Shown: positions 3,577-63,052, counted from the first letter of the stretch. The stretch is DNA of 64,000 nucleotides from an uncultured Acidobacteriota bacterium (GCA_963779415.1 CAVZYA010000001.1:672001-736000); one strand, 5' to 3'. Numbers and translations are program-made. The notes: a model not told the origin generated them from the letters alone.

Positions 3577-3591
3577 GCAAGTACCACGCCC
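3577..3591 (-). promoter_or_regulatory. Putative sigma54 -24/-12 promoter
   Basis: Minus strand GGGCGTGGTACTTGC (GG-N10-GC); near-identical to the element at 17441-17455. Confidence 0.55.
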
Positions 3592-3654
3592 GAAGGGCTA
3601 ACGTCCTCAAGTGATTGAATTTCTGTCGGAATCGCCCGCCGGAGCCCCTCCGGT

Positions 3655-3674
3655 TGTTACCGTCTCTTCCCAGC
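3655..3674. promoter_or_regulatory. Putative activator-binding site, copy 1
   Basis: TGTTACCGTCTCTTCCCAGC is 19/20 identical to 17519-17538, and both lie exactly 78 nt from their sigma54 element. Confidence 0.6.
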
Positions 3675-3725
3675 CGGCAAAGAAGGGCCGTGCCTGGCGA
3701 GACTTCCCCCTGGCCTTCCAGTTGA

Positions 3726-4160
3726 TCAGGAGTCTGGAGTGCGGCCGCCCCTGCCTTCAACCTGGCTCTTGAGCTCCCGGTTCTCGCGCACGAGCGCCTG
3801 GAAGCGCAGGGCCTTGTCGAGGGCAAGCAGGATCTGCTCCTTGCGGAACGGCTTGGTGATGAAGTCGACGGCGCCGCGCTTGAGCGCCTCGGCCGCCGAC
3901 TCCTCCGACCCGTAGGCCGTCATGACCAGCACCGCGATGTCGGGGTCGCGCGCGTGCACTTTCGCCAGGAGATCGAGGCCGTCCATGCCGGGCATCTTGA
4001 GGTCGGTCACGATCGCGTCGACTCTCTCGTGCCCGAGGATCTCCGCGACCTCGAGCGGATTGTTGGTCGCCAGGACCTGGTGCTGGGTGTGGCCGCGGAT
4101 GAGGGTGCGCAGGAGCGCCAGCATGTCGGGTTCGTCGTCGACCAGGAGGATGCGGGCCAT
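3726..4160 (-). CDS. Single-domain response regulator
   Basis: ILLVDDE...TDLKMPGMDG...MTAYG...FITKPF; no output domain. Confidence 0.9.
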   Translation of the reverse strand: MARILLVDDEPDMLALLRTLIRGHTQHQVLATNNPLEVAEILGHERVDAIVTDLKMPGMDGLDLLAKVHARDPDIAVLVMTAYGSEESAAEALKRGAVDFITKPFRKEQILLALDKALRFQALVRENRELKSQVEGRGGRTPDS

Positions 4161-4175
4161 GGGTCACCTCGCGTT

Positions 4176-6392
4176 TCAGGGTACCGGCTTTTCCGGCGCC
4201 GGCAGGAGGGAGACGAGGAACGTCGTGCCGGGCGGGCCGCCGGAGTCGCCCGCGGGGCGGGTCTCGAAGGAGATGGTGCCGCCGAACTTGGTCACGATGG
4301 CGTGGCTGACCGACAACCCCAGGCCGGTCCCCTCGCCGACCTTCTTCGTGGTAAAGAACGGCTCGAACACCTTGTCGGTGTGCTCGCGCGGGATGCCGCA
4401 GCCGGAGTCGGAGAACGCGATCTCCACCAGCTTGCTCAGCGGGCCGAGGCGGGTGCTCACCGTCAAGGCGCCGCCGTCGGGCATGGCCGCCATGGCGTTG
4501 TTGGTGAGGTTCATGAAGACCTGCTGGAGCTGGCCCGAGTCGGCCCGGGCCCGCGGGAGGCCCTCGGCCAAGTCGAGCTTCAGGTCGATCCGCCGGGTCT
4601 TGAGAGCGTGGCCGAGAATCTCGAGGATGGCGCCGACGTCCTGGTTCACGTCGGTCCGGTCGCCGGCCTTCTGAGGAATGCGCGCGAACGCCAGCAGGTT
4701 CTCGACGATCCGCTTGCAGGCGAGCCCCTGGCGCTCGATGCGCATCAACGTCTCGCGCAGCTCGCTCCCCTCGGGCGCGGACTCGAGGAGCACCTCGGTG
4801 AAGCCGAGGATGACGGCGATCGGGTTGTTGATCTCGTGGCCGACGCCCGCGGCCAGGCGGCCCAGCGAGGCGAGCTTCTCGGTGCGGTAGAGGACCTCCT
4901 CGAGCCGCTGGTGCTCCTCGATGTCGTGCGCGACCAGGAGGACACGGTCCGCCGGGCCCTCCTCGGGCAGGGGGACGAAGTGTCCGGCGAGCTGGTAGTC
5001 GCGGCCACGCGCCTTGATGGTCAGGTGGGCGTCGAGGCTCCGCCCGCGATCGAGGGCCTGGTGCACGTGGGCGAGCAGAGCCTGCGCGTCGGCGGGCCTG
5101 AGCAGGTCGGAGAGGGGCTGCCCCCAGAGATCGGGCGCCTCCGCCCCGAGCGCGGTCGCGGCGAAGCGGTTGATGGCCTGAATACGCCCGTCGGGGTCGA
5201 CCACGACGATGAACTCGCGCACGCTGTCGACGACAGATCGGTACTTCTCCTCGGCCCGGCGGAGCGAGGCGTTGGTGGCGAGGAGGTCCGAAGTCGCGCG
5301 CTTGACGCGGGCCTCCATTTCGCGCGACCAGCGGCGCTCGTGCCAGACGAGGGCCATCCCGGCGAAGACCAGGGCCAGCACCAGCACCGCCTGGACGAAG
5401 AGCTGGCGAACGTATGTCGAGCGGACGGTTCGTGCCACCTCGGCCGCGGGCACGACGGCGGCGACAGACCAGAATCGGCCCGGTTCGATGGTCACCGGCG
5501 AGAAGGCCACGTACTTCTTCACCTCGCCGCCCGTCTGGCCGAGGTGCCAGTCGGAGATGTACCACGAGGTCCCCTCCTCGCCGCGCAGCATCCGCGTCTT
5601 CTGGATCTCGTCGATCCGGTCGAAACGCGTTCCGGGGCTGCGCTGGTGGCGGGCTGTGGAGGCGTCAAGGCCGACCAGGGCTTCATCGGGGTGGTAGAGG
5701 AAGCGGCCGTCGTCGGCGAGAGCCCAGGCGTAGGCCGAGTGCTCGTCGCGGGCGCCGGCCACGTGGCGTCCCACGAGCTGGTCGAGCCGCAGCCGCACGG
5801 TGAGGACGCCGCCGAAGGCCCCCGGGGCATGCGGGTGCGACGGGTCGACCGACTCCTGGTAGACCGGTGTGCCGACCTGGAAGGTGGGTACCAGGGCGCC
5901 TGCCTGCCGCTCGACCTCGACCGGACCGTGGTGGAAGCGGCCCTTCACGGCCGGGTCGCGCGCCCAGGCGAGCATCGCCGATGCCGGCCCCGGGCCGGGC
6001 TCGGTGCGGGCCGTCCCGTCGGCGGTCACCAGGCTGCTGGTAGAGCCGTCCGCGGAAGTGCGGCGGATCTCCAGCGCGCCATACTGTCTCAGCTCCTCCA
6101 TGCCGATGCGCATCCGGTTTGCCCAGGCCACGTCCTCCAGGTACTGAACCGATGGCGAGTAAGCAAGCGTTTGGAGCTCGCGGCGGATGTGGTGCAGGGA
6201 ATCGCTGACCTGGTGCGCCAGGCTGCGGGCCACGATGAGCTGCTGGCGCGTCAGGTCGTCGGCGACGATCTGCTCGGTCCTCTTGATCGAGACGAGCCCG
6301 ATCAGCAGGGCCACCACCAGCAGTACGGCGGTGGCGGCGCCCATGACGGTGACCACCAGCCGGAATGCCAGATGTTTCGCGAGGAGGCGCAT
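4176..6392 (-). CDS. Sensor histidine kinase (Cache-type periplasmic domain, PAS, HisKA, HATPase)
   Basis: Two TMs flank a periplasmic domain; AGVGHEINNP H-box, NLTNNA, DSGCGI, FFTTK, GTGLGL. Confidence 0.9.
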   Translation of the reverse strand: MRLLAKHLAFRLVVTVMGAATAVLLVVALLIGLVSIKRTEQIVADDLTRQQLIVARSLAHQVSDSLHHIRRELQTLAYSPSVQYLEDVAWANRMRIGMEELRQYGALEIRRTSADGSTSSLVTADGTARTEPGPGPASAMLAWARDPAVKGRFHHGPVEVERQAGALVPTFQVGTPVYQESVDPSHPHAPGAFGGVLTVRLRLDQLVGRHVAGARDEHSAYAWALADDGRFLYHPDEALVGLDASTARHQRSPGTRFDRIDEIQKTRMLRGEEGTSWYISDWHLGQTGGEVKKYVAFSPVTIEPGRFWSVAAVVPAAEVARTVRSTYVRQLFVQAVLVLALVFAGMALVWHERRWSREMEARVKRATSDLLATNASLRRAEEKYRSVVDSVREFIVVVDPDGRIQAINRFAATALGAEAPDLWGQPLSDLLRPADAQALLAHVHQALDRGRSLDAHLTIKARGRDYQLAGHFVPLPEEGPADRVLLVAHDIEEHQRLEEVLYRTEKLASLGRLAAGVGHEINNPIAVILGFTEVLLESAPEGSELRETLMRIERQGLACKRIVENLLAFARIPQKAGDRTDVNQDVGAILEILGHALKTRRIDLKLDLAEGLPRARADSGQLQQVFMNLTNNAMAAMPDGGALTVSTRLGPLSKLVEIAFSDSGCGIPREHTDKVFEPFFTTKKVGEGTGLGLSVSHAIVTKFGGTISFETRPAGDSGGPPGTTFLVSLLPAPEKPVP

Positions 6393-17440: not shown

Positions 17441-17455
17441 GCAAGGACCGCGCCC
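17441..17455 (-). promoter_or_regulatory. Putative sigma54 -24/-12 promoter
   Basis: Minus strand GGGCGCGGTCCTTGC (GG-N10-GC) upstream of the HK-RR operon. Confidence 0.6.
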
Positions 17456-17518
17456 GAGCCGTCAAGGTCCGGAGGTCGTTGAATCCCAGTAGGTTCAGGC
17501 TGCTGGCGGGCGTCGCCC

Positions 17519-17538
17519 TGTTACCGTCTCTTCACAGC
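17519..17538. promoter_or_regulatory. Putative activator-binding site, copy 2
   Basis: TGTTACCGTCTCTTCACAGC, matching 3655-3674. Confidence 0.6.
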
Positions 17539-19694: not shown

Positions 19695-21071
19695 TCAGCC
19701 GTTCTCCAGCCCGTAGTGCTTGGTCTTCTCCCAGAGGGTCTTGCGGCTCACGCCCAGAATCTGGGCCGCTTCGCTGCGGCGCCCCTCGGTGCGGGAAAGC
19801 GCCGCCCGGATCGCCTCGATCTCCGCCTGCTCCACGGCCTCCTGAAGGGTCGTCGTCTCCTGCGCCGGAGCACGGCGGGGGGCGGGGCTGGCCGTCCGGA
19901 GATTGGCCGGAAGATCCTCGAGTGCGATCTTCGCTTTCCTGCTGAAGAGCGCGGCCCTCTCGACGACGTTACGAAGCTCCCGGACGTTCCCCGCCCAGTG
20001 GTAGGCGTCGAAAGCTTCCAGAACCCCGTCGGAGAACCCTTCGATCGTCTTCCGGCGCTCACGGCTGAACCCCTCCAGGAACGAGGTGGCCAGAACCGGG
20101 ATGTCCTCCCGTCTCTCGCGCAGCGGGGGGAGATGGATGGTCACCGTGTTGATCCGGAAGAAGAGGTCCTCCCGGAAGAGGCCTTCGGAAATCTCCTCCT
20201 CGAGCGGGCGGAGCGATGCCGCGACGATCCGGACGTTGATGTCGATCGGGCGCTGGGATCCGAGCCGCTCGATCTGCCGCTCCTGGAGGACGCGGAGCAG
20301 CTTCACCTGGAACGAGAGGGGCAGTTCGCCGATCTCGTCGAGAAACAGCGTTCCTCCCGAGGCCGCCTCGAACCGCCCGATCCGACGTTCCGAAGCGCCG
20401 GTGAAGGCCCCCTTCTCGTAACCGAACAGCTCGGACTCCAGGAGCGACTCCGGCAGGGAGGCGCAGCTCACACGGATGTACGGCCGCGTCCGGCGGACCG
20501 AGTTGTAATGGATGGCGGAGGCGACCAGCTCCTTGCCGGTTCCGCTCTCCCCCTGGATCAGGACGCTCGCGTCCGAATCGGCCACGACCTTGATCAGCTC
20601 GAACACCTCGAGCATCCTTTTGCTCTTTCCGATGATGTTGCCGAAGGAGAACCGCTTTTCGAGCTGCTCCTGGAGCCGGATGTTCTGCTCCTTCAGGAGC
20701 CGGAACGAGCAGACGTTGTCCAGCCTCAGGACGAGCTGCACCATCGAGAACGGCTTGGCGATGAAGTCCGCGGCCCCGAGGTGCATCGCCTCCACCGCCG
20801 TCTCGACCGTGCCGTGAGCGGTGATGATGATGACCGTCGTGTCGGCCTGGAGAGCCTTGACGCGCCGGAGCAGCTCGATGCCGTCCATGCGCGGCATCAG
20901 GAGGTCGGTCAGGATGACCTCGTGCCGTTGACGCTCGAACAGCGCGAGGGCCTTCGCGCCGTCCTCCACGACGTCCACCTCCCACCCCTCCTTCCGGAGG
21001 GCGTCGGCGATCGTGACCCGGAGGATCGGTTCGTCCTCGACGACGAGGAGCCGGTGCCCGCAAGGCCTCAT
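19695..21071 (-). CDS. Sigma54-dependent response regulator (NtrC/AtoC family)
   Basis: Receiver (VVEDE, DLLMP), GESGTGKE, GAFTGA, LFLDEIG, WAGNVREL, Fis-type HTH; start MRPCGH at 21071. Confidence 0.93.
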   Translation of the reverse strand: MRPCGHRLLVVEDEPILRVTIADALRKEGWEVDVVEDGAKALALFERQRHEVILTDLLMPRMDGIELLRRVKALQADTTVIIITAHGTVETAVEAMHLGAADFIAKPFSMVQLVLRLDNVCSFRLLKEQNIRLQEQLEKRFSFGNIIGKSKRMLEVFELIKVVADSDASVLIQGESGTGKELVASAIHYNSVRRTRPYIRVSCASLPESLLESELFGYEKGAFTGASERRIGRFEAASGGTLFLDEIGELPLSFQVKLLRVLQERQIERLGSQRPIDINVRIVAASLRPLEEEISEGLFREDLFFRINTVTIHLPPLRERREDIPVLATSFLEGFSRERRKTIEGFSDGVLEAFDAYHWAGNVRELRNVVERAALFSRKAKIALEDLPANLRTASPAPRRAPAQETTTLQEAVEQAEIEAIRAALSRTEGRRSEAAQILGVSRKTLWEKTKHYGLENG

Positions 21072-22543
21072 GACCCCGCCTCCCCGTTCTCCCGGGGCGG
21101 GCTCTGGGGGAGGCTGACCCGGAACGTGGATCCCTTCCCCATCTGACTTTCCACGGAAAGCGTCCCTCCATGAGCCGCCACGATGTTGTAGCTTACCGAG
21201 AGTCCCAGACCGGTCCCCTTTCCCACCTCGCGGGTGGAGAAAAAGGGATCGAAGATCCGGTCCTGGATCTCCTCGGGAATGCCCGCCCCGGTGTCGGCCA
21301 CCTCCGCCACCACGCGTCCGCCCGCGATGCGCGTCCGGAAAGTCAGCCACCCCCCTTTCGGCATCGCCTCGATGGCGTTCAGGACCAGGTTCAGGAAGAG
21401 CTGCTCCATCTGAAAGTGGTCCACGAGGACGATCGGCTCGACCGGTGACAGGTCGAACTCCACCTCGACGTTGTTCTTCCGGAGCTGATACTGGACCAGC
21501 TCGGCCACGTGGTGGAGGTTGTGGTTTAGGGAGGTCGGCTCGGGACGTATGGCGCCGGGCCGCGAGAAGTCGAGGAGATTTAGGACTGTGTGCTCGATCC
21601 GCCGGATCCCGTCCTGCACCAGATCGAGATACCGTTCGCGCATCTCGGTATCTCCCGGGTTCGCGCGGATCGTCTCGAGACAGGTGAGGATGCCGGCCAG
21701 CGGGTTGTTCACCTCGTGGGCCACGCCGGCGGCGAGGGTCCCGACGGCGACCATCTTCTCCGTGTGCGCGAGCTGGACTCGCCGCACCTCCTCCCGCCCC
21801 CGGGCCCGCTCGAGCTCCTCCATCGTCCGGTTGAAGGCGGCCGCCAGCTCGCCCACCTCGTCCCAGCGCCTGACCGTGGCCCGGGCCTTGAGATCCCCGT
21901 GCTCCGCTTTCGAGATGGTGTTGTGCAGATTGAGGATGGGCCGGATCAGCGTCTCGACGTAGACGGCCGTGAGGATGGAGTTCCCGAGCATGAGAAGGAG
22001 CGCGACCAGCCCGGCGCGCTTGGCGATGGCGCGGGCCTCCTGCTCGACGGGGGTGAGGGAGAACCCCATGGCGAGGGAGCCCCAGAAGCGCGTCGAGATG
22101 GCGAGGGGGGTCCGGACCTCGAGGATCCGCTCTCCCTCCGGGGAGGTCTGCGGCACCACGACGGACGGCTTGCCGATCGCCGTCCGGTCGAGGGCGCCGG
22201 CGTACCGCCGTCCGATCAGGTTCCAGAGGTTGGAATGGACCACCACGCCGTCGGTATCGGCAATGACGACATACCGGACGAGGTCCCTGTTTCGCTCGAG
22301 AAGCCCGCTGACGTAGTTCTCGATCAGCCCTTCCTCCGTCACGAGCCCCAGCTCCTCGTACATCAGGGCGTCGGTGACCGGGACGGCGAAGGTCTCGGTG
22401 AGGGTAAGCCCGCGGCCGACGATCTCCCGGTAGCGGGTCTGCCGTTCGTGGACGACCGACAGCAGGGTCACGAGCCCCATAGTCACTACGATGAGGGTGT
22501 TGGAGTAGAGGAAGAACTTGGTCCGGATGCCGAGGAGTCGCAT
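21068..22543 (-). CDS. HAMP-containing sensor histidine kinase
   Basis: Start MRLLGI; [37 protein letters not shown]. Confidence 0.9.
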
Positions 22544-22545
22544 CG

Positions 22546-38272: not shown

Positions 38273-38282
38273 CGGATCCCCC

Positions 38283-39362: not shown

Positions 39363-39387
39363 TCGTAGGTACTCCTTTTCCCCGTCC

Positions 39388-40700: not shown

Positions 40701-40715
40701 GCAACCCCTGTGCCG
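40701..40715 (-). promoter_or_regulatory. Sigma54 -24/-12 promoter of the dsrAB operon
   Basis: Minus strand CGGCAC-AGGGG-TTGC, about 120 nt upstream of dsrA. Confidence 0.7.
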
Positions 40716-43686: not shown

Positions 43687-43719
43687 GTCACGGCGATGTA
43701 ACCGTTTCCGATCGGTAAC
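43687..43719. promoter_or_regulatory. Paired GTNAC-N6-GTAAC motifs between dsrM2 and aprB
   Basis: GTCAC-ggcgat-GTAAC (43687) and near-palindromic GTTTC-cgatcg-GTAAC (43704). Confidence 0.6.
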
Positions 43720-43868: not shown

Positions 43869-43883
43869 TGGCACATGGATTGC
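43869..43883 (+). promoter_or_regulatory. Sigma54 -24/-12 promoter of aprBA
   Basis: Consensus TGGCAC-ATGGA-TTGC, 150 nt upstream of aprB. Confidence 0.78.
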
Positions 43884-44033: not shown

Positions 44034-44471
44034 ATGCCCAGTTTCGTGAACCCGGAAAAATGCGACGGGTGCAAGGCGCTTGACAAGACCGCCTGCCAGT
44101 ACATCTGCCCGAACGACCTCATGGTCCTCAACAAGGAGACCATGAAGGCCTACAACCAGGAGCCGGAGATGTGCTGGGAGTGCTACAACTGCGTCAAGAT
44201 CTGCCCCACCCAGGCGGTTGACGTGCGCGGTTACGCGGACTTCGTCCCGATGGGCGCTTCGGTGGTCCCCCTGCGCTCCACCGACAGCATCATGTGGACG
44301 GTGAAGTTCCGCAACGGCACGATCAAGCGCTTCAAGTTCCCCATCCGCAGCACACCCGAGGGCCAGGCGAAACCCGATGGCGGCTTCAACGGTGCGCCGC
44401 CGATCGATGGGCCGGTCCTCTTCACCGAACCCGATTCCCTCGGCCTGCCCGCCGTGTGGACGAAAGCCTGA
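44034..44471 (+). CDS. aprB: APS reductase beta subunit
   Basis: MPSFVNPEKCDGCKALDKTACQYICP...CWECYNCVKICP. Confidence 0.97.
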   Translation: MPSFVNPEKCDGCKALDKTACQYICPNDLMVLNKETMKAYNQEPEMCWECYNCVKICPTQAVDVRGYADFVPMGASVVPLRSTDSIMWTVKFRNGTIKRFKFPIRSTPEGQAKPDGGFNGAPPIDGPVLFTEPDSLGLPAVWTKA

Positions 44472-44481
44472 GGAGGCGGAC

Positions 44482-46389
44482 ATGGCAGACTTCAAAACCG
44501 TTCAGGTCGAAACCGATCTGCTCATCCTCGGTGGCGGAATGGCCGCGTGCGGCGCCGCCGTCGAGGCGGCGTACTGGGGGAAGAAGCACGGCCTCAAGGT
44601 GACGCTCGTCGACAAGGCCGCGGTGGATCGCTCGGGCGCCGTCGCCATGGGACTCTCCGCCATCAACCAGTACGTCGGTCTCAAGGATGGCCAGAACACT
44701 ATCAAGGACTACGTCGACTACGTTCGAAACGATCTCATGGGTGTCACCCGTGAGGACCTCGTGGCCAACATCGCCCGACACGTGGACTCCTCGGTCCACC
44801 TGTTCGAGAAGTGGGGACTCCCGATCTGGAAGGACGAGAAAGGCGCATACGTCCACGAAGGCCGCTGGCAGCTGATGATCAACGGCGAGTCGTACAAGGT
44901 CGTCGTGGCCGAGGCCGCCAAGAACGCGATCGGCAAGGAGAACATCTACGAGCGCGTCTTCATCGTCGGCCCCATCCTCGAAGACGGGCGGTGCGTCGGC
45001 GCGTACGGCTTCTCCGTACGCGAGAACACCTTCTACGTCTTCAAGGCGAAGGCGGTCATTACCGCCATGGGCGGCGCCGTCCACGTCTTCAAGCCGAGGT
45101 CTTCCGGCGAAGGCCAGGGGCGCGCTTGGTATCCGCCCTGGAACGCCGGCGCCTCCGCGTACTTCACCCTCAAGGCAGGGGCCGAAATGACCTGCCAGGA
45201 GGTCCGATTCATCCCGGTCCGGTTCAAGGACGCCTACGGCCCGGTCGGCGCCTGGTTCCTGCTGTTCAAGTCCCGCGCCACGAACGGGCTAGGCGAGAAC
45301 TACATGGAGACGCGCAAGGCCGAGCTCGACAACTGGAAGCCGTACGGGCACGTCAAGCCGGTCCCGGCGAACCTCCGCAACTACCTCATGCTGCTGGACG
45401 TCATGGAGGGCAAGGGCCCGATCTCCATGCGGACCGAGGAGGCGATCCAGAAGATCGCCGCGGGCGCAGGGGACGAGAAGGCAGCCAAGAAGAAGCTCAA
45501 GGAGCTGGAGTCCGAGGCCTGGGAAGACTTCCTCGACATGACGATCTCCCAGGCCATCCTCTGGGCGGCCTCGAACGTGTCGCCGGAGGAGAAGGCGTCC
45601 GAAATCGCGGCGGCGGAGCCGTACTTCATCGGCTCACACTCCGGCGCCTCCGGCGCCTGGGTGTCGGGTCCCGAGGATCTCGCCCCCAAGGATTACTTCT
45701 GGGGCTACGACAACATGTCCACCGTGCGCGGCCTCTTCTGCGCCGGCGACGCCTCGGGCGCCTCGTCGCACAAGTTCTCTTCCGGCTCGCACGCGGAAGG
45801 GCGGATCGCCGCCAAGGCGGCTGTCCGGTTCATCGTCAAGGAGAAGATCGCGGCCCCCAAGGTGGACGCGGCGAAGATCGATCAGCTCAAGGCAGAGGTT
45901 CTGAAGCCGCTGAAGACCTTCGAGGAGTTCAAGGGCGCCACGACGCAGACCGACGTCAACCCCAATTACATCCGACCCAAAATGTTCCAGATGCGCCTGC
46001 AGAAGCTGATGGACGAGTACGCGGGGGGCGTGACAACGCAGTTCACCACCTCCGAGGTGCTTCTCAAGAGGGGCCTGGAGCTGCTCGCGTTCCTCAAGGA
46101 AGACTCGGCGAAGCTGGGCGCTTCCGATCTCCACGAGCTGATGCGCTGCTGGGAGAACGTTCACCGCATGTACCAGGCCGAGGCCCACGTCCGTTCGATC
46201 CTCTTCCGCGAGGAGACGCGCTGGCCCGGCTATTACTTCCGCTCCGACAAGCCCCGGATGGACGAGAAGAACTGGCACGTGTTCGTGAACTGCCGTCTCA
46301 ACGCCACGACCAACGAGTGGGAGATGACCAAGCGACCCATCGTTCATTCGTTCTCGAAGCCCGGGGAGCAGGAGCTCCTCGGTGGCTGA
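44482..46389 (+). CDS. aprA: APS reductase alpha subunit
   Basis: ATG at 44482 after GGAGG; RSGAVAMGLSAIN, WQLMINGESY, HKFSSGSHAEGRI, REETRWPGYY. Confidence 0.97.
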   Translation: MADFKTVQVETDLLILGGGMAACGAAVEAAYWGKKHGLKVTLVDKAAVDRSGAVAMGLSAINQYVGLKDGQNTIKDYVDYVRNDLMGVTREDLVANIARHVDSSVHLFEKWGLPIWKDEKGAYVHEGRWQLMINGESYKVVVAEAAKNAIGKENIYERVFIVGPILEDGRCVGAYGFSVRENTFYVFKAKAVITAMGGAVHVFKPRSSGEGQGRAWYPPWNAGASAYFTLKAGAEMTCQEVRFIPVRFKDAYGPVGAWFLLFKSRATNGLGENYMETRKAELDNWKPYGHVKPVPANLRNYLMLLDVMEGKGPISMRTEEAIQKIAAGAGDEKAAKKKLKELESEAWEDFLDMTISQAILWAASNVSPEEKASEIAAAEPYFIGSHSGASGAWVSGPEDLAPKDYFWGYDNMSTVRGLFCAGDASGASSHKFSSGSHAEGRIAAKAAVRFIVKEKIAAPKVDAAKIDQLKAEVLKPLKTFEEFKGATTQTDVNPNYIRPKMFQMRLQKLMDEYAGGVTTQFTTSEVLLKRGLELLAFLKEDSAKLGASDLHELMRCWENVHRMYQAEAHVRSILFREETRWPGYYFRSDKPRMDEKNWHVFVNCRLNATTNEWEMTKRPIVHSFSKPGEQELLGG

Positions 46390-46402
46390 TTCCGGTTCTG
46401 TC

Positions 46403-46438
46403 GGCCCCGGGCGCCGCGAAGTGCCCGGGGCCTCTTTT
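46403..46438 (+). terminator. Rho-independent terminator-like hairpin after aprA
   Basis: GGCCCCGGGC...GCCCGGGGCC 10-bp stem followed by TCTTTT. Confidence 0.7.
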
Positions 46439-46454
46439 CCCGAGCGAGGTGGGT

Positions 46455-46799
46455 GTGTCTTCAAACAGCCCTGTTCTCACGTGTCCGCACTGCCTGCAAA
46501 CCCTGACGCCGTTTTCGCTTCCCGAGGCGGGCGGCTGGGACACCCCCTTCCAGCTCGCCTGCTTCAACGACGACTGCGCGTACTACGTCCGCGGCTGGAC
46601 GTGGATGGAAGAGCAGTTCGGCGTGAAGAGCTCGTATCGCCATCGCCTCGATCCCGCGTCCGGAACGACCTCTCCGCTCCCGGTCTGGTCGCCGACGGCG
46701 ATCCGCGACCGGATCCTCGAGGCTGACGTGGATGTCGCCGGAGCCGGCGACGCCGACGTGATCCCCGGTGAGGGCGGAAAGAAAGGGAACAAGACATGA
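46455..46799 (+). CDS. Small zinc-ribbon-like protein
   Basis: GTG start after GAGG; CPHC...ACFNDDCAYYVRGW..M......SYR; hidden at the 3' end of ORF 44811..46799. Confidence 0.7.
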   Translation: MSSNSPVLTCPHCLQTLTPFSLPEAGGWDTPFQLACFNDDCAYYVRGWTWMEEQFGVKSSYRHRLDPASGTTSPLPVWSPTAIRDRILEADVDVAGAGDADVIPGEGGKKGNKT

Positions 46800-47584
46800 G
46801 CACGGAGGCCTGCGCCCTTCCCGAGGGTCTGAAGAAACAGAGGCAGCTCGGGAGTGACGAGCCGTTCCGTTTTTCCTGCCACCCGGGCGTGGCCTGCTTC
46901 AACCGCTGCTGCGCCGACGTGAACATCCTCCTGACCCCGCTCGACGTCCTCCGGCTGGCTCGCCGGCGGGGCATGACGACGAAGGAGTTTCTCGACCGGC
47001 ACACTCTCACCCCGATCACGAAGGAGCTTCACCTCCCGCTCGTGATCCTCCGGATGAACGAAGACGAGGGGAAGCGCTGCCCCTTCGTCGGCCCGGAGGG
47101 CTGCACGGTCTACGAAGACCGGCCCTGGGCCTGCCGGATGTATCCGGTTGGGGTGGCGCTCCCGCCGGCCCGCGCGGGTGTGGAGCCGGAGCCGGTCTCC
47201 TTCCTCTTCGAGGACGACTTCTGTCTCGGCCGCGAGGAGGCCCGGCTCTGGACGGTCCCCGCATGGCGGGGCGATCAGCGGGTGGAGGAGCAGGAAGAGA
47301 TCGAAGCGGGATTCCGGGAGATCGTCGGCCATCCCTGGTTCATCGGAGGTCGGCAGCTCGACCCGAAGCGGATGGAGATGTTCTTCATCGCCTGCTACGA
47401 CCTCGATACCTTCCGCCGTCTCGTCTTCCATTCGACCTTTCTCGACCGTTTCGCGGTAGCGCCGGACGTCGTGGAGCGGATGAAAAAGGACGACATCGAG
47501 CTCCTCCGTTTCTCGTTCCGCTGGCTGAAATTCGCTCTCTTCGGCGAGCCCACGATCACGGTCAAGGAGGGGAGGCCGTCATGA
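46796..47584 (+). CDS. YkgJ-family cysteine-cluster protein
   Basis: FSCHPGVACFNRCC, CPFV...GCTVYEDRPWACRMYP. Confidence 0.88.
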   Translation: MSTEACALPEGLKKQRQLGSDEPFRFSCHPGVACFNRCCADVNILLTPLDVLRLARRRGMTTKEFLDRHTLTPITKELHLPLVILRMNEDEGKRCPFVGPEGCTVYEDRPWACRMYPVGVALPPARAGVEPEPVSFLFEDDFCLGREEARLWTVPAWRGDQRVEEQEEIEAGFREIVGHPWFIGGRQLDPKRMEMFFIACYDLDTFRRLVFHSTFLDRFAVAPDVVERMKKDDIELLRFSFRWLKFALFGEPTITVKEGRPS

Positions 47585-48833
47585 CGGTGCAGCACCCCAA
47601 GCCGATGCTGGTGGTCGGGGCGGGAATCGCCGGCATCACCGCCGCGCTCGAGGCGTCGGAAGCGGGGCGGGAGGTCCTTCTCGTAGAGCGGGAGCCTGCG
47701 GTCGGGGGCCGCGTCCTCAGAAGCTACCACTACTTTCCCAAGCTCTGCCCCCCCTCCTGCGGCATGGAGATCAATACCCGAAGGCTCGAGCGGAACCCCC
47801 GCGTGAAGGTCATGACCGGCTGCCGGGTGACGAAAGCCGCCGTCTCGGACGGCGGCTGGCATGTCACGCTGACCCACTCCCCCGCCTTCGTCAACGAGCA
47901 ATGCACGGCCTGCGGCGACTGCAGCAAGGTCTGTCCGGCGAAGGTCCCCGATCCATTCAACCTGGGAATGAACGAGGCTCCGGCCGTGCGGCTGCCGTTT
48001 CCGAACGCCTGGCCTCGCCGCTTCACGCTGGACCGCCCGGCCTGCCCTCCCGGCTGCCGGGCCTGCGTCGATGCGTGCACGTACAAGGCGATCGACCTCG
48101 CGGCGACGGAGCGCGAGGAGAGCGTGGACGTGGGGGCGGTGGTCATCGCGACCGGATGGCACCCCTACCCGCTGGAAAAGCTTTCGGAGCTGGGAGGAGG
48201 GCTCTTCCCGGACGTGATTCGAACGTCCAGATGGAGCGGCTCGCATCTCCCTCGGGACCGACGGGCGGCAGGATCCTCCGCCCGTCCGACGGGAAGCCGC
48301 CGAAGCATGTGGCTTTCGTCCAGTGCGCCGGGTCGCGGGACGTCAAGCACCTCCCTTACTGCTCGTCGGTCTGCTGCCTCGCCTCGCTCAAGCAGGCGCT
48401 CTACGTCCACGAGCAGCTCCCCGAGACGGAGGTGAGCATCTACTACATCGACCGCCGCACCCCGGGGCGCAACGAGGAGATGCTCACGAAAGTCGCCGCG
48501 ACGAGCGGCGTCAAGCTGATCAAGGGAAAGGTGGGCAAGGTGGAGAAGGGCGACGACGGCGGACTCCGCCTGCGCCTGGAGGACGTCGCCAGCGGACGCC
48601 TCCTCTCGGCCGGTGCGGACCTCGTCGTCCTCGCCACCGGCATGGTCCCCAATCTCTCCGCCGATGCCCTTCCCTTCCCGGTCACCCGGGACGACGACGG
48701 CTTCTGCCTCGACAGCCCGGAATCGAGTCTCTGCGTCGCCGGCGTGGCCCGGCGCCCCGAGGACGTCGCCGCCTCGGTGCGGGACGCCACCGGGGCCGCC
48801 GCGAAGGCCTTCGTGGCCGGAAGGAGGGCGTGA
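47581..48833 (+). CDS. qmoA: QmoA (HdrA-like), frameshifted near 48218
   Basis: VVGAGIAGITAALEA, YFPKLCPPSCG; resumes in the other frame as SNVQMERLASPSGPTGG...FVQCAGSRD..HLPYCSSVCC. Confidence 0.9.
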
Positions 48834-51077
48834 TGCAGCGCCCCGGCGTCTTCCTCTGCAGCGGCTGCGGCATCGGCGAAGCCATCAAGCTCGATGGTCT
48901 CGCCGAAGCGGCGGAGCTCGGAAAGATCCCCTGCACGATCCACCCCTGCCTCTGCGCTCCCGAGCCGGTCGCGGCGATGCGCGCCGCCGTGGAGAGCGGC
49001 GAGCTGGACGCGCTCCTCGTGGGAGCCTGTTCGCCGCGCGCCAAAGTCGCCGAGTTCCGCTTCGACCCCGAGAAGGCCGCCGTGGAGCGGGTCGCGCTGA
49101 GAGAGCAGGTGGCCTGGTCACACCCGGCGGGCGCGGATGACACCCAACTGCTGGCCGAGGACCTTCTCCGGATGGGGCACGCACGGCTCCAGAGAATCTC
49201 TCCGCCGAAGCCTTTCGCCGAAAACATCGAACGGACGATCCTGATCGTGGGAGGCGGCGTGGCCGGCCTTTCGGCCGCACAGGCCGCCGCCGGAGCGGGC
49301 CACCCGGTCGTCCTCGTCGAGTCGACCGAGCGGCTGGGAGGGCATCTCGCCGAGGGTAAAGACGTGGTGCCGGAGCGGCCCCCGTACGACGCCCCGCAGC
49401 CGAACCAGGTTTCGGAGCTGATCGGCAAGGTGGCGGCTCATCCGGCCGTCCGGGTCTTCACATCGACCCGGATCCGGGAGATCAACGGGCAGCCCGGTCA
49501 GTTCAAGGTGGAACTCCAGACGCCGGGAGGCGTGGAGGCCTTCACCGCCGGTGCCATCGTTCAGGCGACCGGAGCCCACCCCTACGACGCGAAGAAGCTC
49601 TCCCATCTCGGATACGGCGTCTCGCCGAACGTGGTCACGTCCCACGAGCTGGAGGCGATGCTCAAGGAGGGGAAGCTCCGGCGGCCTTCCGACGGGAAGC
49701 TTCCCGGGAGAATCGTCTTCGTCCAGTGCGCCGGATCTCGCGACCCGGCACACCTTTCCTACTGCTCCGCCGACTGCTGCGGGACCACCCTGAAGCAGGT
49801 CGCGGTGATCGGACGCGACTTTCCGGATGTGGAATGCGCCGTCGTCTACAAGGACATCCGGACCCCCGGAACGCTCGAACATTTCTACCGGTCCGTCCAG
49901 GACCACCCGGGGCGCCTCTTCGCCCGGGGGGAAGTGGAGAAGGTCGAAGGGAACGGCCATCTCACCGTCCGGCTGCGCGAGAGCCTTCTCGGCGACGCCT
50001 GCGACCTCTCGGCCGACCTCGTCGTCCTGGCAGTGGGGATGGTGCCCAACTCCGCCGACGGCGAGGCGATCCGCACACTCCACGACGCCCAGCGGCGAGC
50101 CGAGCGCGGCGAATCGGAGACACAGCGGGAAGAGGCGCGCAAGATTGCGGCCTCTCTCATCCAGCACGAAGGGACGGAGATCCTGAACCTGGGCTACCGC
50201 CAGGGACCGGACCTGCCGGTTCTCGCTTCCTCCTTCAACGACTCCCACTTCATCTGCTTCCCGTACGAGACCCGGAGGACCGGCATCTACGCCGCCGGTG
50301 CGCTGCGGGCTCCGATGGACGCCGCCCAGGCGACCGAGGACGGATGGGGCGCCGCGATGAAAGCGATCCAGGTCATCTCCGCGGCGGAACGGGGCGAGGC
50401 CGTTCACCCGCGATCGGGAGACCTCGGCATTCCCGATTTCTTCATGCAACGGTGCACGCAATGCAAGCGCTGCACCGAGGAGTGCCCGTTCGGAATGCTC
50501 AACGAGGACGAGAAGGGGACGCCCCAGCTCAACCCGCTCCGGTGCCGCCGCTGCGGCATCTGCATGGGCGCCTGTCCCGAGCGGATCATCTCCTTCCCGG
50601 ACTACTCCGTGGACATCGTGGCCAGCATGATCAAGGCGATGAGCGTCCCGGACGAGTCCGAGGAGAAACCCCGGATCGTCGCGCTGATGTGCGAGAACGA
50701 CGCGATCCCCGCCCTCGACGCCGCCGCCGCCATGCGCAAGAGCTGGAACCCGTGGGTGCGCGTCATCCCGATACGCTGCCTCGGCTCGACCAACATCGTC
50801 TGGATCGCCGACGCGCTCTCCCGCGGGATCGACGGCGTCATGCTCGTCGGCTGCAAGTCGGGCGACGACTACCAATGCCACTATGTGCGCGGCTCCCAGC
50901 TCGCCCAGACCCGGCTTACGAACGTGCAGGAGACGCTGACCCGCCTCGCCCTCGAGCCGGAACGGATCAAGGTTGTGGAGCTCTCTCACGACGAATTCGA
51001 CCGCATTCCCGGAGGTCCTCGACGCCTTCTCGAAAACGATCGAGGATCTCGGCCCGAACCCGCTGAAGGGGTTCTGA
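48833..51077 (+). CDS. qmoB: QmoB (HdrA + MvhD-like), frameshifted near 51010
   Basis: GVFLCSGCGIG, LREQVAWSH, CTQCKRCTEECPFG, RCLGS, GCKSGDDYQCH; removing 1 nt gives EVLDAFSKTIEDLGPNPLKGF-stop. Confidence 0.9.
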
Positions 51078-51087
51078 GGGGGGCGCC

Positions 51088-52209
51088 ATGTCGACACTCC
51101 CCGCGATCCTTCCCTCCGCCGAATTCCGGACGGAGCTGGCGCGCCGCGGCGGCGCCACCGCCACCCGCTGTTACCAATGTGCCACCTGCTCGGCGGTCTG
51201 CGAGCTGGCCCCGGACAACGCTCCCTTCCCCCGCCGTCAGATGCTCCTCGTCCAGTGGGGCCTCGAGGCGCAGGTCGCCGCCGATCCCGCCGTCTGGCTC
51301 TGCCACCAGTGCAACGACTGCACCGAGCGATGCCCGCGCGACGCCCGCCCCGGCGACGTTCTTCAGGCGGTCCGGAGCCTGGCCGTCGAAAAGCTCGCCT
51401 TCCCGCCAGCCATGGGACGGCTGGTCGGCCGTGCCGCCACCACGTGGCCGCTCCTCCTGGCGATTCCGATCATCTTCTGGCTTGCCCTTCTCGCCGGCAC
51501 CGGGCACCTCGCCCTTCCCGCCGACTTCCAGGCCTACGAACAGCTCGTCCCGCACGCGTTCATTTACGGGGTCTTCTTCCCCGTGGCCGCGTGGGTCGTC
51601 CTGGCGAGCTGGGTGAGCGGGCGCCGGTTCTGGGCGACCCTGGGAGCCGCCTCGCCGCGCTCCGGCACGTTTCTCGGGAACCTGATTCCCGTTCTCGGCG
51701 AGATCGCGAGTCACAAGCGATTCCGTTCGTGCGGCGCGGCCCGGCCCCGCTTCGCCAGCCATTTCCTCCTCCTCTGGGGCTTCGTCGGCGCGGCGGTCAC
51801 CTCGGGCCTCCTGATCGTCGGCATCTACGTCCAGAAGCTGCCGATGCCGCTCGCCCTCTCGCATCCGTACAAGATCCTGGGCAACCTGTCGGCGGTTCTG
51901 CTGGTCATCGGGGGAACCTGGCTCGTCGTCAACCGCCTCGGACACCGGGCCGCGTCCGGTGCGTCGACGGCCTTCGACACGTACTTTCTCACGATCGTGG
52001 CCCTCGTCATCGTCACCGGCGTCCTGAGCGAGGTGGCCCGCCTCGCCTTCTCGAAGGAGTTCGCTTTCGCCCTCTACATCACCCACCTCGGAGTGGTGCT
52101 CAACCTCTTCCTCACCTTCCCGTACTCAAAATTCGCCCACCTTCTCTACCGCTCCCTCGCAATGGTGCACCAGCGCATGGTCGAAGCGGCAGAACCGACT
52201 CACCTCTGA
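51088..52209 (+). CDS. qmoC: QmoC (HdrC + cytochrome b membrane anchor)
   Basis: CYQCATCSAVC, FPRRQML..QWG, WLCHQCNDCTERCPR, PYSKFAHLLYR. Confidence 0.93.
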   Translation: MSTLPAILPSAEFRTELARRGGATATRCYQCATCSAVCELAPDNAPFPRRQMLLVQWGLEAQVAADPAVWLCHQCNDCTERCPRDARPGDVLQAVRSLAVEKLAFPPAMGRLVGRAATTWPLLLAIPIIFWLALLAGTGHLALPADFQAYEQLVPHAFIYGVFFPVAAWVVLASWVSGRRFWATLGAASPRSGTFLGNLIPVLGEIASHKRFRSCGAARPRFASHFLLLWGFVGAAVTSGLLIVGIYVQKLPMPLALSHPYKILGNLSAVLLVIGGTWLVVNRLGHRAASGASTAFDTYFLTIVALVIVTGVLSEVARLAFSKEFAFALYITHLGVVLNLFLTFPYSKFAHLLYRSLAMVHQRMVEAAEPTHL

Positions 52210-52236
52210 GAGAGCCCAGGAAAGGAGAACGATTCG

Positions 52237-53502
52237 ATGTCAAAACTCGTACCGCCTCATGGAAGCCGGACGCTCAAGCCGCTTCTTCTGGAAGGCAAGG
52301 CGCTGCAGGAGGAGATCCTCAAGGCGCGCACCCTCAAGAAGGTCCCCATGACGAGCCGGGAGACTTCGGACCTCATCATGATGGGGATCGGCGCCTTCAC
52401 GCCCCTCACGGGTTTCATGGGCTACGATGACTGGAAGCGCTGCTGCGACTCGTACCAGCTCCCATCCGCCAAGAACCTCTTCTGGCCCATCCCGATCACG
52501 CTCTCGGCCGAGCCCGCGCTCGCCGACACGATCAAGATCCGTGACGAGGTCGCCCTCTGGGACACCGAGACCGATGCCCTTATGGGCACGATGACGGTGA
52601 CCGAGAAGTACGTCATCGACAAGGAGCACGAGTGCAAGCAGGTGTTCCGGACCGTCGACCCGAAGCACCCCGGGGTCGAGAAGGTGATGGCCCAGGCGCC
52701 GGTCAACCTGGCGGGACCGGTGAAGGTCGTCTCGGAGTCCTACTACCCGGAGATGTTCAAGGGGATCTACCAGCGCCCCGTCGAAGCGCGCAAGGTCTTC
52801 GAGGAGCGCGGCTGGACGACCGTGGCGGCCCTGCAGCTCCGGAACCCGATGCACGGCTCGCACGCCTACCTCGCGTGGATCGCCATCGAGGTCTGCGACG
52901 GCGTCTACATCCACCAGCTCGTCGGCAAGCTCAAGGAGGGGGACATCCCCGCCGAGGTGCGGGTCCGCGCCATCGATGCCCTCGTCAACAAGTATTTCCG
53001 GAAGGAGCGCGTCGTCCAGGGCGGGTATCCGATGGAGATGCGCTACGCGGGGCCGCGTGAGGCGCTGCTTCACGCCGTCTTCCGGCAGAATTACGGCTGC
53101 TCGCACCTGATCGTGGGGCGCGACCACGCCGGGGTGGGGGACTACTACGGTCCGTTCGACGCGCAGAAGATCTTCCACGAGATCCCCTCCGACGCCCTCA
53201 TCCTCAAGCCCCTCCCGCTCGACTGGACCTTCTACTGCTACGAGTGCGGGGCGATGGCATCGATGAAGACCTGTCCCCACGAGAGCAAGGCCGTCATCGA
53301 CGAGAACGGAAAGTACAAGGGGGGCGCGCGCCTGCTCCTCTCCGGCACCCTTCTCCGCAAGCTGATGAGCGAGGGAAAGCCGGTCCCGTCGGAGTTCTCG
53401 AAGCCGGAGGTCATCGCCATTCTGAAGGAGTACTACGACACCCTCGAGCAGAAGGTGGAGATCAAGCTGCACGGCCATGCCACCGGGGAGGCCAAGAAGT
53501 AG
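52237..53502 (+). CDS. sat: Sulfate adenylyltransferase
   Basis: [44 protein letters not shown]. Confidence 0.96.
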
Positions 53503-62051: not shown

Positions 62052-62084
62052 GGATGAACTCCCGGCGGACGTTGGCGCTCGATG

Positions 62085-62897
62085 TCAACCGTCGAAACTC
62101 GACGCACATCCGGGCTGGTACTCGACGGCCTCGACGCCCTCGACCGCCCGCACGACGTCGAGAACGTCGGAGAGCTGGTGATCTTCCAAGAACGGCCCTT
62201 CGAGCAGGACGTTCCGCTCCCGGGTTCGCGCGGCAATCTCCCAGGCGAGCGTCCGGGGATCGCTCACCAGCGCGGCCTCGACGCTGACCGAGAGGAAAAG
62301 CTCCTGGAAGGCCTTCGCGGTCTCGGGTGTCGGCTGGAAGTCCTTCTCCCCGAGGCCCGCCGCGATAGACACGCAGGCGGTCTCCACCGACATTCTCTCG
62401 AGCGAGACGCAAATGTCGTAGAGATTGGGATCCCGGATATCCCGCCCGTACATGAAGCGTCCCCAGCGGACCCGCTCCTCGTCTTCCCGGAGGACGGCTT
62501 CCCGCGCCTCGCCCTCGGGGAGTCCGAGCCGCCGGATCGCGTTCCGGACCCGAAGTGTCATCGGGGCGTTCGCCCGGACACGCATGCAGCACGGCACGGC
62601 TGGCACGAGCAGGTGGCTCGCATACCCGGCATAGACGACATTTCTCTCGGCGATGAACCCGAGCAGGGCCCGCCGCATCAGGACGAGATAGGGGCGGCGG
62701 AGCTGGCCGAACTGGTCGTACGCGCGGGTGGCGTGGTCCAGGCTCGCCCGGACCTTCTTCGCATGCTCCCCCTGGGCATCGACAACCTCGATGAGATCCT
62801 CGCGACAGACGTAGCGGAGGGAGAGACGCTCTGCGAGGCAGCGAGCCAACGCCTCCCCGCCCGACATCGTGCCGCGAGATATGAGGACGACAGACAA
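62085..62897 (-). CDS. Cytidylate-kinase-like family protein with BON-like tail
   Basis: TTG start at 62897; VVLISRGTMSGG..LA..L, DEERVRWGRFMYG.D..DPNLYD. Confidence 0.78.
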   Translation of the reverse strand: MSVVLISRGTMSGGEALARCLAERLSLRYVCREDLIEVVDAQGEHAKKVRASLDHATRAYDQFGQLRRPYLVLMRRALLGFIAERNVVYAGYASHLLVPAVPCCMRVRANAPMTLRVRNAIRRLGLPEGEAREAVLREDEERVRWGRFMYGRDIRDPNLYDICVSLERMSVETACVSIAAGLGEKDFQPTPETAKAFQELFLSVSVEAALVSDPRTLAWEIAARTRERNVLLEGPFLEDHQLSDVLDVVRAVEGVEAVEYQPGCASSFDG

Positions 62898-62926
62898 ACT
62901 TCCCCCAGAAACCCGCGGACGGAAAA

Positions 62927-62941
62927 GCAAGGTCGCTGCCA
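62927..62941 (-). promoter_or_regulatory. Sigma54 -24/-12 promoter
   Basis: Minus strand TGGCAG-CGACC-TTGC, 30 nt upstream of the TTG start. Confidence 0.68.
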
Positions 62942-63017
62942 ACGGCGGCGAGCGTCGGAACGCATTCCAGCGAGCGGCTCTCCCGGCGGAAGGAAAACCG
63001 ACGGCGCGGCGATCTCC

Positions 63018-63052
63018 GTAACGAGGGTCGAGGGCTGTAACCCCGAGGTAAC
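63018..63052. promoter_or_regulatory. GTAAC-N6-GTAAC motif
   Basis: GTAAC at 63018, 63037 and 63048 (last two 11 nt apart). Confidence 0.55.

Follow-up and report, generated by a model that had tools for sequence, protein, structure and literature searches.

Which regulatory system switches on dissimilatory sulfate reduction in Acidobacteriota? The question is raised by a 64,000-nt stretch of DNA from an uncultured member of this phylum (GCA_963779415.1 CAVZYA010000001.1:672001-736000, in our numbering G000:C1:672001-736000; hereafter the window), which belongs to a genome of 4.36 Mb (3 contigs, 68% G+C). Genes were called by codon usage and then scanned with Pfam and NCBIfam, and a complete dissimilatory sulfate-reduction supercluster was found within the window. 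A first-pass annotation had marked five GG-N10-GC promoters, each with a motif related to GTNAC-N6-GTAAC upstream, and had proposed that a single sigma-54 activator switches on dsrAB, aprBA and the flanking transport and signalling operons together. When the sequence was checked again, all five promoters and all seven motif sites were exactly where that annotation had put them. As detailed below, the observation is real: the comparative data point to a sigma-54 regulon, conserved among Acidobacteriota, that would govern dissimilatory sulfate reduction, and both its enhancer and a well-supported candidate for its activator can be named. The regulon takes in the promoters of dsrA, aprB and an operon headed by a Cyt_kin2-family gene (at 62927), which are conserved in orthologous promoters; the two remaining promoters (3577 and 17441) belong to a separate family and are unlikely members.

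According to the text of Dyksma and Pester (2023; PMC10564751), at least one acidobacterium with dsr and apr genes switches between oxygen respiration and sulfate reduction, and transcription of sat, aprAB and dsr in an acidobacterial metagenome-assembled genome (MAG) is almost entirely restricted to anoxia. The present genome encodes haem-copper oxidase genes, and the facultative lifestyle that the first-pass annotation had assumed is therefore plausible. In a full-text literature search (supplements excluded), no paper was found that describes regulation of dsr or apr by sigma-54 or an activator. The words sigma and promoter are absent from the text of Hausmann 2018 on peatland Acidobacteria, as are sigma, promoter and "regulat"-words from that of Dyksma and Pester (2023), and sigma, promoter, regulator and kinase from the text proper of the synteny study by Neukirchen 2023.

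Predicted Sigma-54 Promoters

Candidate promoters were scored by their mismatches to TGGCAC-N5-TTGC, with GG and GC fixed in the genome-wide scan. The five sites in the window are as follows.

43869..43883, plus strand: predicted promoter of aprBA-qmoABC-sat, TGGCACATGGATTGC, 0 mismatches, 150 nt upstream of the aprB ATG at 44034
40701..40715, minus strand: predicted promoter of the dsrA operon, CGGCACAGGGGTTGC, 1 mismatch, 123 nt upstream of the dsrA ATG at 40578
62927..62941, minus strand: predicted promoter of the Cyt_kin2 – DUF202 – histidine kinase – receiver operon, TGGCAGCGACCTTGC, 1 mismatch
17441..17455, minus strand: possible promoter, GGGCGCGGTCCTTGC, 2 mismatches
3577..3591, minus strand: possible promoter, GGGCGTGGTACTTGC, 3 mismatches

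Perfect sites occur eight times in the intergenic DNA of the genome and never in coding DNA. Sites with one mismatch are found 46 times in intergenic (35.6 per Mb per strand) vs. 25 times in coding DNA (3.4 per Mb per strand), so that sites with 0–1 mismatch are ≈10-fold enriched between genes. At two mismatches the enrichment is merely ≈2.2-fold, and a loose scan of the window (≤2 mismatches) showed no enrichment (35 matches vs. 41.3 expected). As the enrichment is clear only at 0–1 mismatch, the sites at 43869, 40701, and 62927 are strong candidates, whereas those at 17441 and 3577, which retain only GG/GC and TTGC of the consensus, are not distinguishable from background by sequence alone. 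The sigma factor gene rpoN is present (PF04552 match, 218.7 bits, C1:443751-444224). Transcription of dsrA is predicted to start near 40690, and the operon behind the 62927 promoter spans 62867 down to 59207.

A 16-bp Putative Enhancer Upstream of the Promoters

Copies of a GTNAC-N6-GTNAC element lie upstream of each of the three strong promoters (no strand is assigned to them).

40810..40836: putative dsrA enhancer 1, reading TTTAC-N6-GTTAC-N6-GTTAC toward dsrA; its core 16-mer (40810-40825) starts 110 nt upstream of the promoter
40929..40944: putative dsrA enhancer 2, reading GTTAC-N6-GTGAC toward dsrA, 229 nt upstream of the promoter
43687..43719: putative tandem enhancer of aprB, GTCAC-N6-GTAAC, 1 nt, GTTTC-N6-GTAAC, 182 and 165 nt upstream of the promoter
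63037..63052: putative enhancer of the 62927 promoter, reading GTTAC-N6-GTTAC toward the operon, 111 nt upstream

The element is rare. The window has four GTNAC-N6-GTNAC sites vs. 0.36 expected, and none of 100 shuffled sequences reached four, which bears out the enrichment over background that a real operator ought to have. Genome-wide there are 18 such sites (10 of them intergenic), and five of the 18 stand upstream of sigma-54 promoters, namely those of dsrA (110 and 229 nt), aprB (182 nt), the 62927 operon (111 nt) and an operon at C1:615314 (110 nt). If one mismatch to GTWAC-N6-GTWAC is allowed, the genome contains 16 intergenic sites, and such a site is found 60–260 nt upstream in four of the 54 strong intergenic sigma-54 candidates vs. 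≈0.3 expected.

Conservation at dsrA and aprB

For comparison, 80 dsrA loci were fetched from other genomes. A locus was counted as positive when a sigma-54 promoter with ≤1 mismatch and an exact GTNAC-N6-GTNAC 95–125 nt upstream of it were found no more than 2.2 kb from dsrA and on its strand. This signature is present in 32 of the 80 loci, directly before dsrA in 22 and ≈1.7–1.8 kb upstream in 10, and it follows the locus labels: 28 of 41 Acidobacteriota-labelled loci are positive vs. 4 of 39 labelled otherwise. Two of the ten distant cases were examined (L035 and L077), and in both an open reading frame (ORF) of ≈555 aa, YeiH-like in L035, lies between the promoter and dsrA.

The centre bases of the half-sites were not selected for, yet over 35 non-identical sites they are T in 33 and A in 30, and the element is therefore a palindrome, GTTAC-N6-GTAAC. 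Its distance to the promoter is 108–111 nt in 31 of the 35. This fixed spacing replaces the loose 65–230 nt of the first-pass annotation, and the palindrome replaces its less symmetrical motif as the general form. An alignment of eight orthologous dsrA upstream regions has a mean column identity of 55%, and its invariant columns fall within the enhancer, a short AA, the promoter (GGCAC..G.GTTGC) and the ribosome-binding site with the ATG. Within enhancer 1 it is the GTTAC and GT.AC columns that never vary. A counterpart of dsrA enhancer 2 (GTTAC-N6-GTGAC) is found at ≈205–229 nt in the closer relatives (L011–L015 and L021).

At aprB, the promoter and the tandem GTCAC-N6-GTAAC / GTTYC-N6-GTAAC are retained in the three closest loci (L011–L013), and the tandem also occurs in L109, L110, and L106. 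The aprB gene was found in eight of ten further genomes. All eight have a sigma-54 promoter (0–1 mismatch) 95–217 nt before it, six of them with at least one full enhancer site upstream, so that the conservation in orthologous promoters which the first-pass annotation had set as a test was found for dsrA and aprB alike.

Another 16 aprB-bearing loci are labelled Anaeromyxobacteraceae, Planctomycetota, Gemmatimonadota, etc. In most of these, another conserved box, with a -35 of the TTGAC type, is found instead, and many have a LysR-type gene upstream; sigma-54 control would therefore be lineage-specific. The box is of the type ATCAA..TTTATC..ATTGAAA..TTGAC and was seen upstream of aprB in L023, L026, L028, L032, L046, L048, L054, L058, L066, and others. 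It looks like a different, sigma-70-type control. A separate observation concerns the aprB promoters of L106, L107, L108, L111, L112, and L113, where a TTGTGA-N6-[G/T]CACAA-like sequence lies over the -24 element (e.g., TTGTGAATTCGGGCACAAG). We take this sequence to resemble a CRP/FNR-type box.

Regulon Members Elsewhere

A pattern scan for enhancer plus promoter was made in five other genomes and returned 4–8 distinct sites in each vs. 0–2 for the reversed control. The sites precede dsrA, aprBA, sat (G045), the dsrM region (G055), YeiH-like genes (G044 and G055), a Cyt_kin2 gene (G041 and G044) and Porin_O_P-like genes (G044, plus a homologue in G055). In G041, the closest complete relative, the 62927 promoter is identical and has its enhancer 121 nt upstream. 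In the present genome the signature also occurs outside the window, before a porin / FAD-oxidoreductase / AMP-ligase operon (C1:615314), and a weaker form (ATTAC-N6-GTAAC 79 nt before AGGCAGAGCCCTTGC) precedes a YeiH-family gene on contig C2. The regulon thus reaches beyond the window. No orthology between the porin of this genome and the Porin_O_P-like genes of G044 and G055 was detectable by BLASTP; what they have in common is the Pfam family alone, and the G055 homologue has no Pfam match of its own. Taken as a set, the members make functional sense together for a diderm cell that respires sulfate: they comprise enzymes, complexes for electron transfer, putative anion channels and transporters, and one nucleotide-kinase-like protein.

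Candidate Activator and Its Sensor Genes

Promoters of this kind depend on an activator, and a candidate is encoded at the tail of the dsr gene string together with two putative sensor proteins.

19695..21071, minus strand: NtrC-type response regulator, candidate activator (PF00072; PF00158, 236 bits; PF25601; PF02954)
21068..22549, minus strand: putative cognate histidine kinase with two membrane-spanning segments, an outer loop of ≈140 residues, HAMP, HisKA and HATPase
22546..23445, minus strand: predicted periplasmic binding protein of the PhnD/PtxB family (PF12974) with a signal-peptide-like N-terminus

The regulator has a receiver, an AAA+ sigma-54 interaction domain (GAFTGA at residue 221) and a Fis-type helix-turn-helix (HTH; LGVSRKTLWEK). 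Its gene overlaps that of the kinase, and the gene order binding protein – kinase – activator is X-S-R. The binding protein likely starts at the ATG at 23445, which would give a 4-nt overlap with the end of the gene upstream. Its nearest solved structures are PtxB (phosphite-binding, 1e-21), ArrX (arsenate-sensing, 3e-12), HtxB and AioX (arsenite-sensing, 6e-8). None of the three proteins reaches the cut-off of any NCBIfam model. The best equivalog of the regulator is AtoC (491 bits vs. a cut-off of 714), and the binding protein gives a weak match to the TtrS model (4e-5, far below cut-off).

The first-pass annotation had pointed to this regulator as the only GAFTGA activator in the window. 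With 28 PF00158 matches in the genome, ≈23 of them strong, this is no argument by itself, but phyletic, syntenic and helix evidence leave the same protein as the best candidate. Orthologues with 68–91% identity are present in 10 of 10 signature genomes tested, where the next paralogue does not exceed 49%, and they lie ≈18–20 kb downstream of dsrA where contigs allow. The kinase adjoins the activator in all ten other genomes examined (53–83% identity), and the helix LG[VI]SRKTLWEK is invariant in 11 of 11. The synteny block shared with G041 begins exactly at the activator gene.

Five genomes were chosen in which no promoter had been seen. Four of them give only 42–49% matches to the activator. 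In the fifth, G055, an orthologue of 75% identity is present, and a second scan revealed the signature 1.7 kb upstream of dsrA. In a sample of 300 genomes drawn evenly from the phylum, with five activator candidates scored per genome, the orthologue is present in 5 and dsrA in 34. Four sample genomes have both, on one contig and 15–20 kb apart. All four have a perfect sigma-54 promoter with the element at 108–110 nt, which is exact in two and has one mismatch in the other two (GAAAC right half). Seven of the 30 sample genomes with dsrA only were examined, and no sigma-54 site with ≤1 mismatch was found up to 3 kb upstream of dsrA (≈1.1 kb covered in one of them). Overall, the orthologue is present in 15 of 15 genomes with the signature vs. 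0 of 11 dsrA genomes without it. Since the genomes are kin and the genes are linked, we regard this as strong circumstantial evidence, not proof.

One observation from G045 stands apart. Just 3' of the activator gene (L144), a perfect sigma-54 promoter is preceded at 102 nt by the enhancer GTTACGAGGAGGTTAC. Behind it come ≈190 nt that lack a long ORF, and a hairpin and T-run. We regard this as a candidate sigma-54-dependent small RNA.

Proposed Switch and Competing Explanations

From the elements with their rarity, conservation and spacing, from the content of the regulon and from the co-occurrence and synteny of the activator, we infer that sigma-54 RNA polymerase would use these sites and that the activator would bind the element, and also what the signal may be. 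We consider it likely that the dsr, apr and Cyt_kin2 operons are under sigma-54 promoters with a GTTAC-N6-GT(A/T)AC enhancer and that the regulator at 19695-21071, with its adjacent sensor genes, is the activator. The dsrAB, aprBA-qmoABC-sat and Cyt_kin2/DUF202 operons would then be transcribed from promoters that depend on this 16-bp near-palindrome, which at dsrA and the Cyt_kin2 operon stands 108–111 nt before the -24 element, while the enhancer of aprB would be the tandem pair at 165 and 182 nt. The regulator, most likely the activator, would be phosphorylated by the adjacent kinase (21068-22549), and this kinase would be controlled by the adjacent PtxB/AioX-like periplasmic binding protein (22546-23445), following the three-component logic of AioXSR. 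Sigma-54 promoters are silent without their activator, and we therefore propose an all-or-none switch for sulfate respiration in a facultative aerobe. The position of the sensor genes at the tail of the dsr gene string would make positive feedback possible.

The signal may be a sulfur oxyanion. Sulfite is isostructural with phosphite, the ligand of PtxB, and it is conceivable, though we offer the idea tentatively, that the binding protein acts with the kinase and the activator as a dedicated periplasmic sensor for sulfite, sulfate or thiosulfate that is common across Acidobacteriota classes and travels with the dsr supercluster. If true, dissimilatory sulfate/sulfite reduction would have its first described switch that senses the electron acceptor.

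Several points weigh against the proposed switch, or at least against parts of it. At the 110-nt sites of this genome (all three of them) and of its two nearest relatives the right half-site is GTTAC and not GTAAC, and the site in this genome reads as a direct repeat. The aprB promoters of L111 and L112 have half-sites only. In Thermoanaerobaculia-/Sulfomarinibacteraceae-type loci, the gene of a different, PAS-domain activator ends directly upstream of the enhancer. The DNA-binding helix of the candidate is only generically similar to those of family members, and its specificity cannot be read from it. Activator and enhancer also belong to the same supercluster, which looks mobile and is patchily distributed, dsrA having turned up in no more than 2 of 40 relatives searched. 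The co-occurrence may for this reason reflect linkage and shared descent instead of function, and kin do not count as independent cases. Because five candidates were scored per genome, some of the activator absences may be misses. Finally, in G238 (94% complete) the activator is present and dsrA was not found, while in G006 (87% complete) dsrA is present and the activator was not found.

The regulon and its enhancer could be real and yet be bound by another protein, either one of the ≈22 other sigma-54 activators of the genome or one of the PAS-domain type, with the regulator at 19695-21071 controlling something else. Linkage alone could give the co-occurrence of a regulator inside the window, and genes of the PAS-domain type end ≈60–100 nt from the enhancer in eight loci (L039, at 4254-5687, L040, L051, L057, L059, L063, L068, and L073). 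The L039 group has the helix GIHPSTLFRK and a VPExDGRSR tail, and its PAS-type label comes from a full-length alignment with the PAS-domain activator at C1:554462. This last protein is the best match in the present genome, but it has only 50% identity and a different helix, and it stands beside a sigma-54 promoter of its own that lacks the element. The PAS-domain type was accordingly rejected as the binder here, with neither an orthologue nor a matching helix in this genome. Among five close relatives that keep the same enhancer, four have no PAS-type activator at E ≤ 1e-115 and the fifth gave a 52% match. The receiver-type regulator alone is present in every signature genome tested, and the block that is syntenic with relatives has no strong sigma-54 promoters besides those of dsrA, aprB and 62927. 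A PspF-like activator 4 kb beyond the window (G000:C1:740332-741321, L093) was also considered and rejected; it has GSFTHA and not GAFTGA, is without a sensory domain, and gave paralogue-level matches only, with no orthologues in the dsrA loci. We therefore judge binding by another protein to be quite improbable in this genome. In the lineages of the L039 group, the PAS-domain activator is possibly a second input on the same dsrA promoter, and if the oxyanion sensor exists, acceptor sensing and redox/oxygen sensing would there converge on one sigma-54 promoter. More radically, the matches could be due to chance or be non-functional, with dsrA and aprB on sigma-70 promoters under Rex-, HcpR- or LysR-type control. 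HcpR is, like Rex, among the regulators of sulfate reduction in Desulfovibrio, and the LysR gene and sigma-70-like box before aprB in other lineages of the comparison set have a place in such a scheme. We find it extremely hard to believe for this locus, given the rarity of the enhancer, the invariant columns in an alignment of 55% identity, the fixed spacing over 35 sites and the recurrence of the signature before six functionally related gene sets elsewhere.

The question of whether the same activator also drives the weaker promoters concerns a group of three similar regions, which we call class-2.

3577..3671, minus strand: class-2 region B, GGGAAGAGACGGTAAC (3656-3671) 79 nt upstream of GGGCGTGGTACTTGC, before CitMHS/DASS-type transporter genes
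17441..17535, minus strand: class-2 region C, GTGAAGAGACGGTAAC (17520-17535) 79 nt upstream of GGGCGCGGTCCTTGC, before dCache histidine kinase and receiver genes
C1:671594 in the genome (region 671400-671650), ≈400 nt before the window: class-2 region A, before TauE and H+-pyrophosphatase genes

The three align with each other over ≈200 nt and share the 79-nt spacing and a fully conserved GAAGAGACGGTAAC block, besides the blocks GCTG[G/T]GAAGAGACGGTAACA, ATTCAA, CGGGCG[T/C]GGT[A/C]CTTGCTT, and ACGTGCGGA. That they join the transport, pyrophosphatase and signalling operons to the dsr/apr programme under one activator, as the first-pass annotation had it for 3577 and 17441, is in our view unlikely, although some features speak for it. 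Each region has a GTAAC half-site 79 nt upstream of GG-N10-GC, i.e., 31 nt or three helical turns less than 110, and the same spacing recurs at the YeiH-family promoter on C2 with its better site. The genes downstream (CitMHS/DASS transporters, TauE, H+-pyrophosphatase, and a dCache kinase with receivers) would suit sulfate respiration. However, only the GTAAC half is shared with the enhancer; the left half is GGGAA or GTGAA (2–3 of 5 matches), and the "spacer" GAGACG is invariant in the three copies, unlike the variable spacer of true sites. With 2–3 mismatches the promoters fall in a barely enriched class, and their mutual similarity may reflect recent duplication only. The word GAGACGGTAAC, which marks the three regions within this genome, is absent from five related genomes, so that class-2 regions are known from this genome only, and positions 1-19696 of the window have no synteny with G041. 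A further word, GAAGAGACG, was tried as a shared enhancer word and discarded as uninformative (147 copies in the genome, mostly coding). The class-2 promoters form a separate paralogous family and are doubtful members of the dsr/apr regulon.

The PAS-domain activator gene of this genome has a setting of its own (G000:C1:554462-558909, L091). It is divergent from a perfect sigma-54 promoter, TGGCACGTTGATTGC, that precedes genes for an HdrD-like CCG-domain protein and a 4Fe-4S protein, and a GAGACGTCTC palindrome lies ≈105 nt upstream.

Comparison With Known Systems

The closest parallel is the AioX-AioS-AioR three-component system (Agrobacterium, Rhizobium NT-26, and Herminiimonas), which according to the text of PMC7533571 activates the arsenite oxidase genes aioBA through an RpoN promoter. 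In AioXSR and ArrXSR, as in the module proposed here, a PtxB/PhnD-family binding protein, a membrane kinase and an NtrC-type activator are encoded together, and their genes stand beside respiratory enzyme genes that are switched on via an RpoN promoter (PMC7533571). The footprinted AioR site GTTCGGATTTCCGAAC (PMC5335332) is likewise a 16-bp palindrome with identical outer GTT...AAC. The inner bases of the half-sites differ (AC/GT here vs. CG/CG for AioR), dsr, apr, qmo, and sat take the place of aioBA or arr as the predicted targets, PtxB, which binds phosphite, is nearer to the binding protein than AioX is, and the sensor genes lie 15–20 kb downstream at the cluster tail and not beside the promoter. 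Judged by its binding protein, gene order and site layout, the module may thus work like AioXSR with another target pathway.

As in other activators of the NtrC/AtoC/ZraR type, a receiver, an AAA+ domain with GAFTGA and a Fis-type HTH are combined, and the enhancer lies ≈100–230 nt upstream of -24/-12. The regulon and the motif are different, and no NCBIfam equivalog is reached at cut-off. The tetrathionate respiration system TtrSR resembles the present module in that a sulfur-oxyanion respiratory pathway is controlled by a kinase that senses via a PhnD-like periplasmic module, and the binding protein matches the TtrS model weakly. In TtrS, however, kinase and PhnD-like module are one fused protein, and TtrR, unlike the regulator here, is not known to be an activator of sigma-54 promoters.

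The contrast with Desulfovibrio drawn in the first-pass annotation fits what the literature covered here reports. The same pathway genes (sat, apr, qmo, and dsr) are controlled, but by a redox-sensing repressor with mild effects on sigma-70 promoters, in place of the dedicated activator and sigma-54 proposed here. Rex is described as a mild regulator of these genes in D. alaskensis (Kuehl 2014, PMC4045070): in a Rex mutant, qmoABCD and sat rose by less than 2-fold and there was no induction of dsrABD and apsAB; Rex sites were predicted. The paper on the D. vulgaris sigma-54 regulome (PMC4641369; supplements not covered) does not use the words dsr, apr, qmo, and sulfite reductase in its main text.

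Peat, soil and sediments harbour abundant Acidobacteriota with dsr and apr genes. The promoter type, the 16-bp enhancer and the three-gene sensor make the proposed switch amenable to molecular testing. The signature could also serve to mark genomes, separating lineages inducible by a dedicated activator from those with a LysR gene and a sigma-70-like box or with Rex-type control.

Gene Content of the Window

The genes behind the two divergent promoters of the cluster are the following.

28031..40578, minus strand: dsr operon(s) behind the dsrA promoter, with dsrA, dsrB, a dsrD-sized ORF, a dsrL-like gene (split), dsrN, a DVU0298-family gene, a TPR gene, dsrC, an RsbRD_N gene and dsrMKJOP
39388-40578, minus strand: dsrA, ATG at 40578
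44034..53502, plus strand: aprB (ATG at 44034), aprA, two small genes, qmoABC and sat, behind the aprB promoter

The dsrD-sized ORF is named by size and position only. Past dsrMKJOP, the same strand continues with a flavoprotein gene, a hemA-like and a cysG-like gene and then the sensor genes. Strand and short gaps suggest that this dsr gene string may form a single transcript, and short gaps likewise point to aprBA-qmoABC-sat as one operon. A second dsrMK-like pair lies upstream of dsrA. The cluster is flanked by SulP, CitMHS/DASS and TauE transporter genes, by many kinases and single-domain receivers, and by three Cyt_kin2-family proteins. The closest DsrA sequences have 66–94% identity and come mostly from Acidobacteriota MAGs. 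An Rfam scan of the window gave no family at gathering score.

Two genes of the cluster appear broken. The dsrL-like gene (36284-38103, minus strand) consists of two overlapping frames (36284-37465 and 37087-38103), whereas its counterpart in G041 is one open frame of 665 codons; this is an apparent frameshift or assembly indel. The qmoB frame (48218-52209, plus strand) extends to 51616, ≈550 nt inside qmoC (51067-52209), whereas in G041 it stops ≤10 nt from the qmoC start, and an indel near 51011-51066 is likely. The two cases together suggest indel errors in the assembly.

The hemA-like (glutamyl-tRNA reductase) gene at 25231-26274 is missing from the corresponding place in G041, although the region is collinear in other respects. 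A stretch of 2.4 kb (17291-19694), bordering the block syntenic with G041, has no confident gene call and a somewhat lower G+C (54–66%); its three longest plus-strand ORFs have no Pfam match, and there is no Rfam match. The three Cyt_kin2-family (cytidylate-kinase-like) proteins of the cluster are encoded at 8918-10300, 54599-56104, and 62085-62867. One of them has CBS and BON domains, and one stands directly behind a promoter of the proposed regulon and is kept in G041 and G044.

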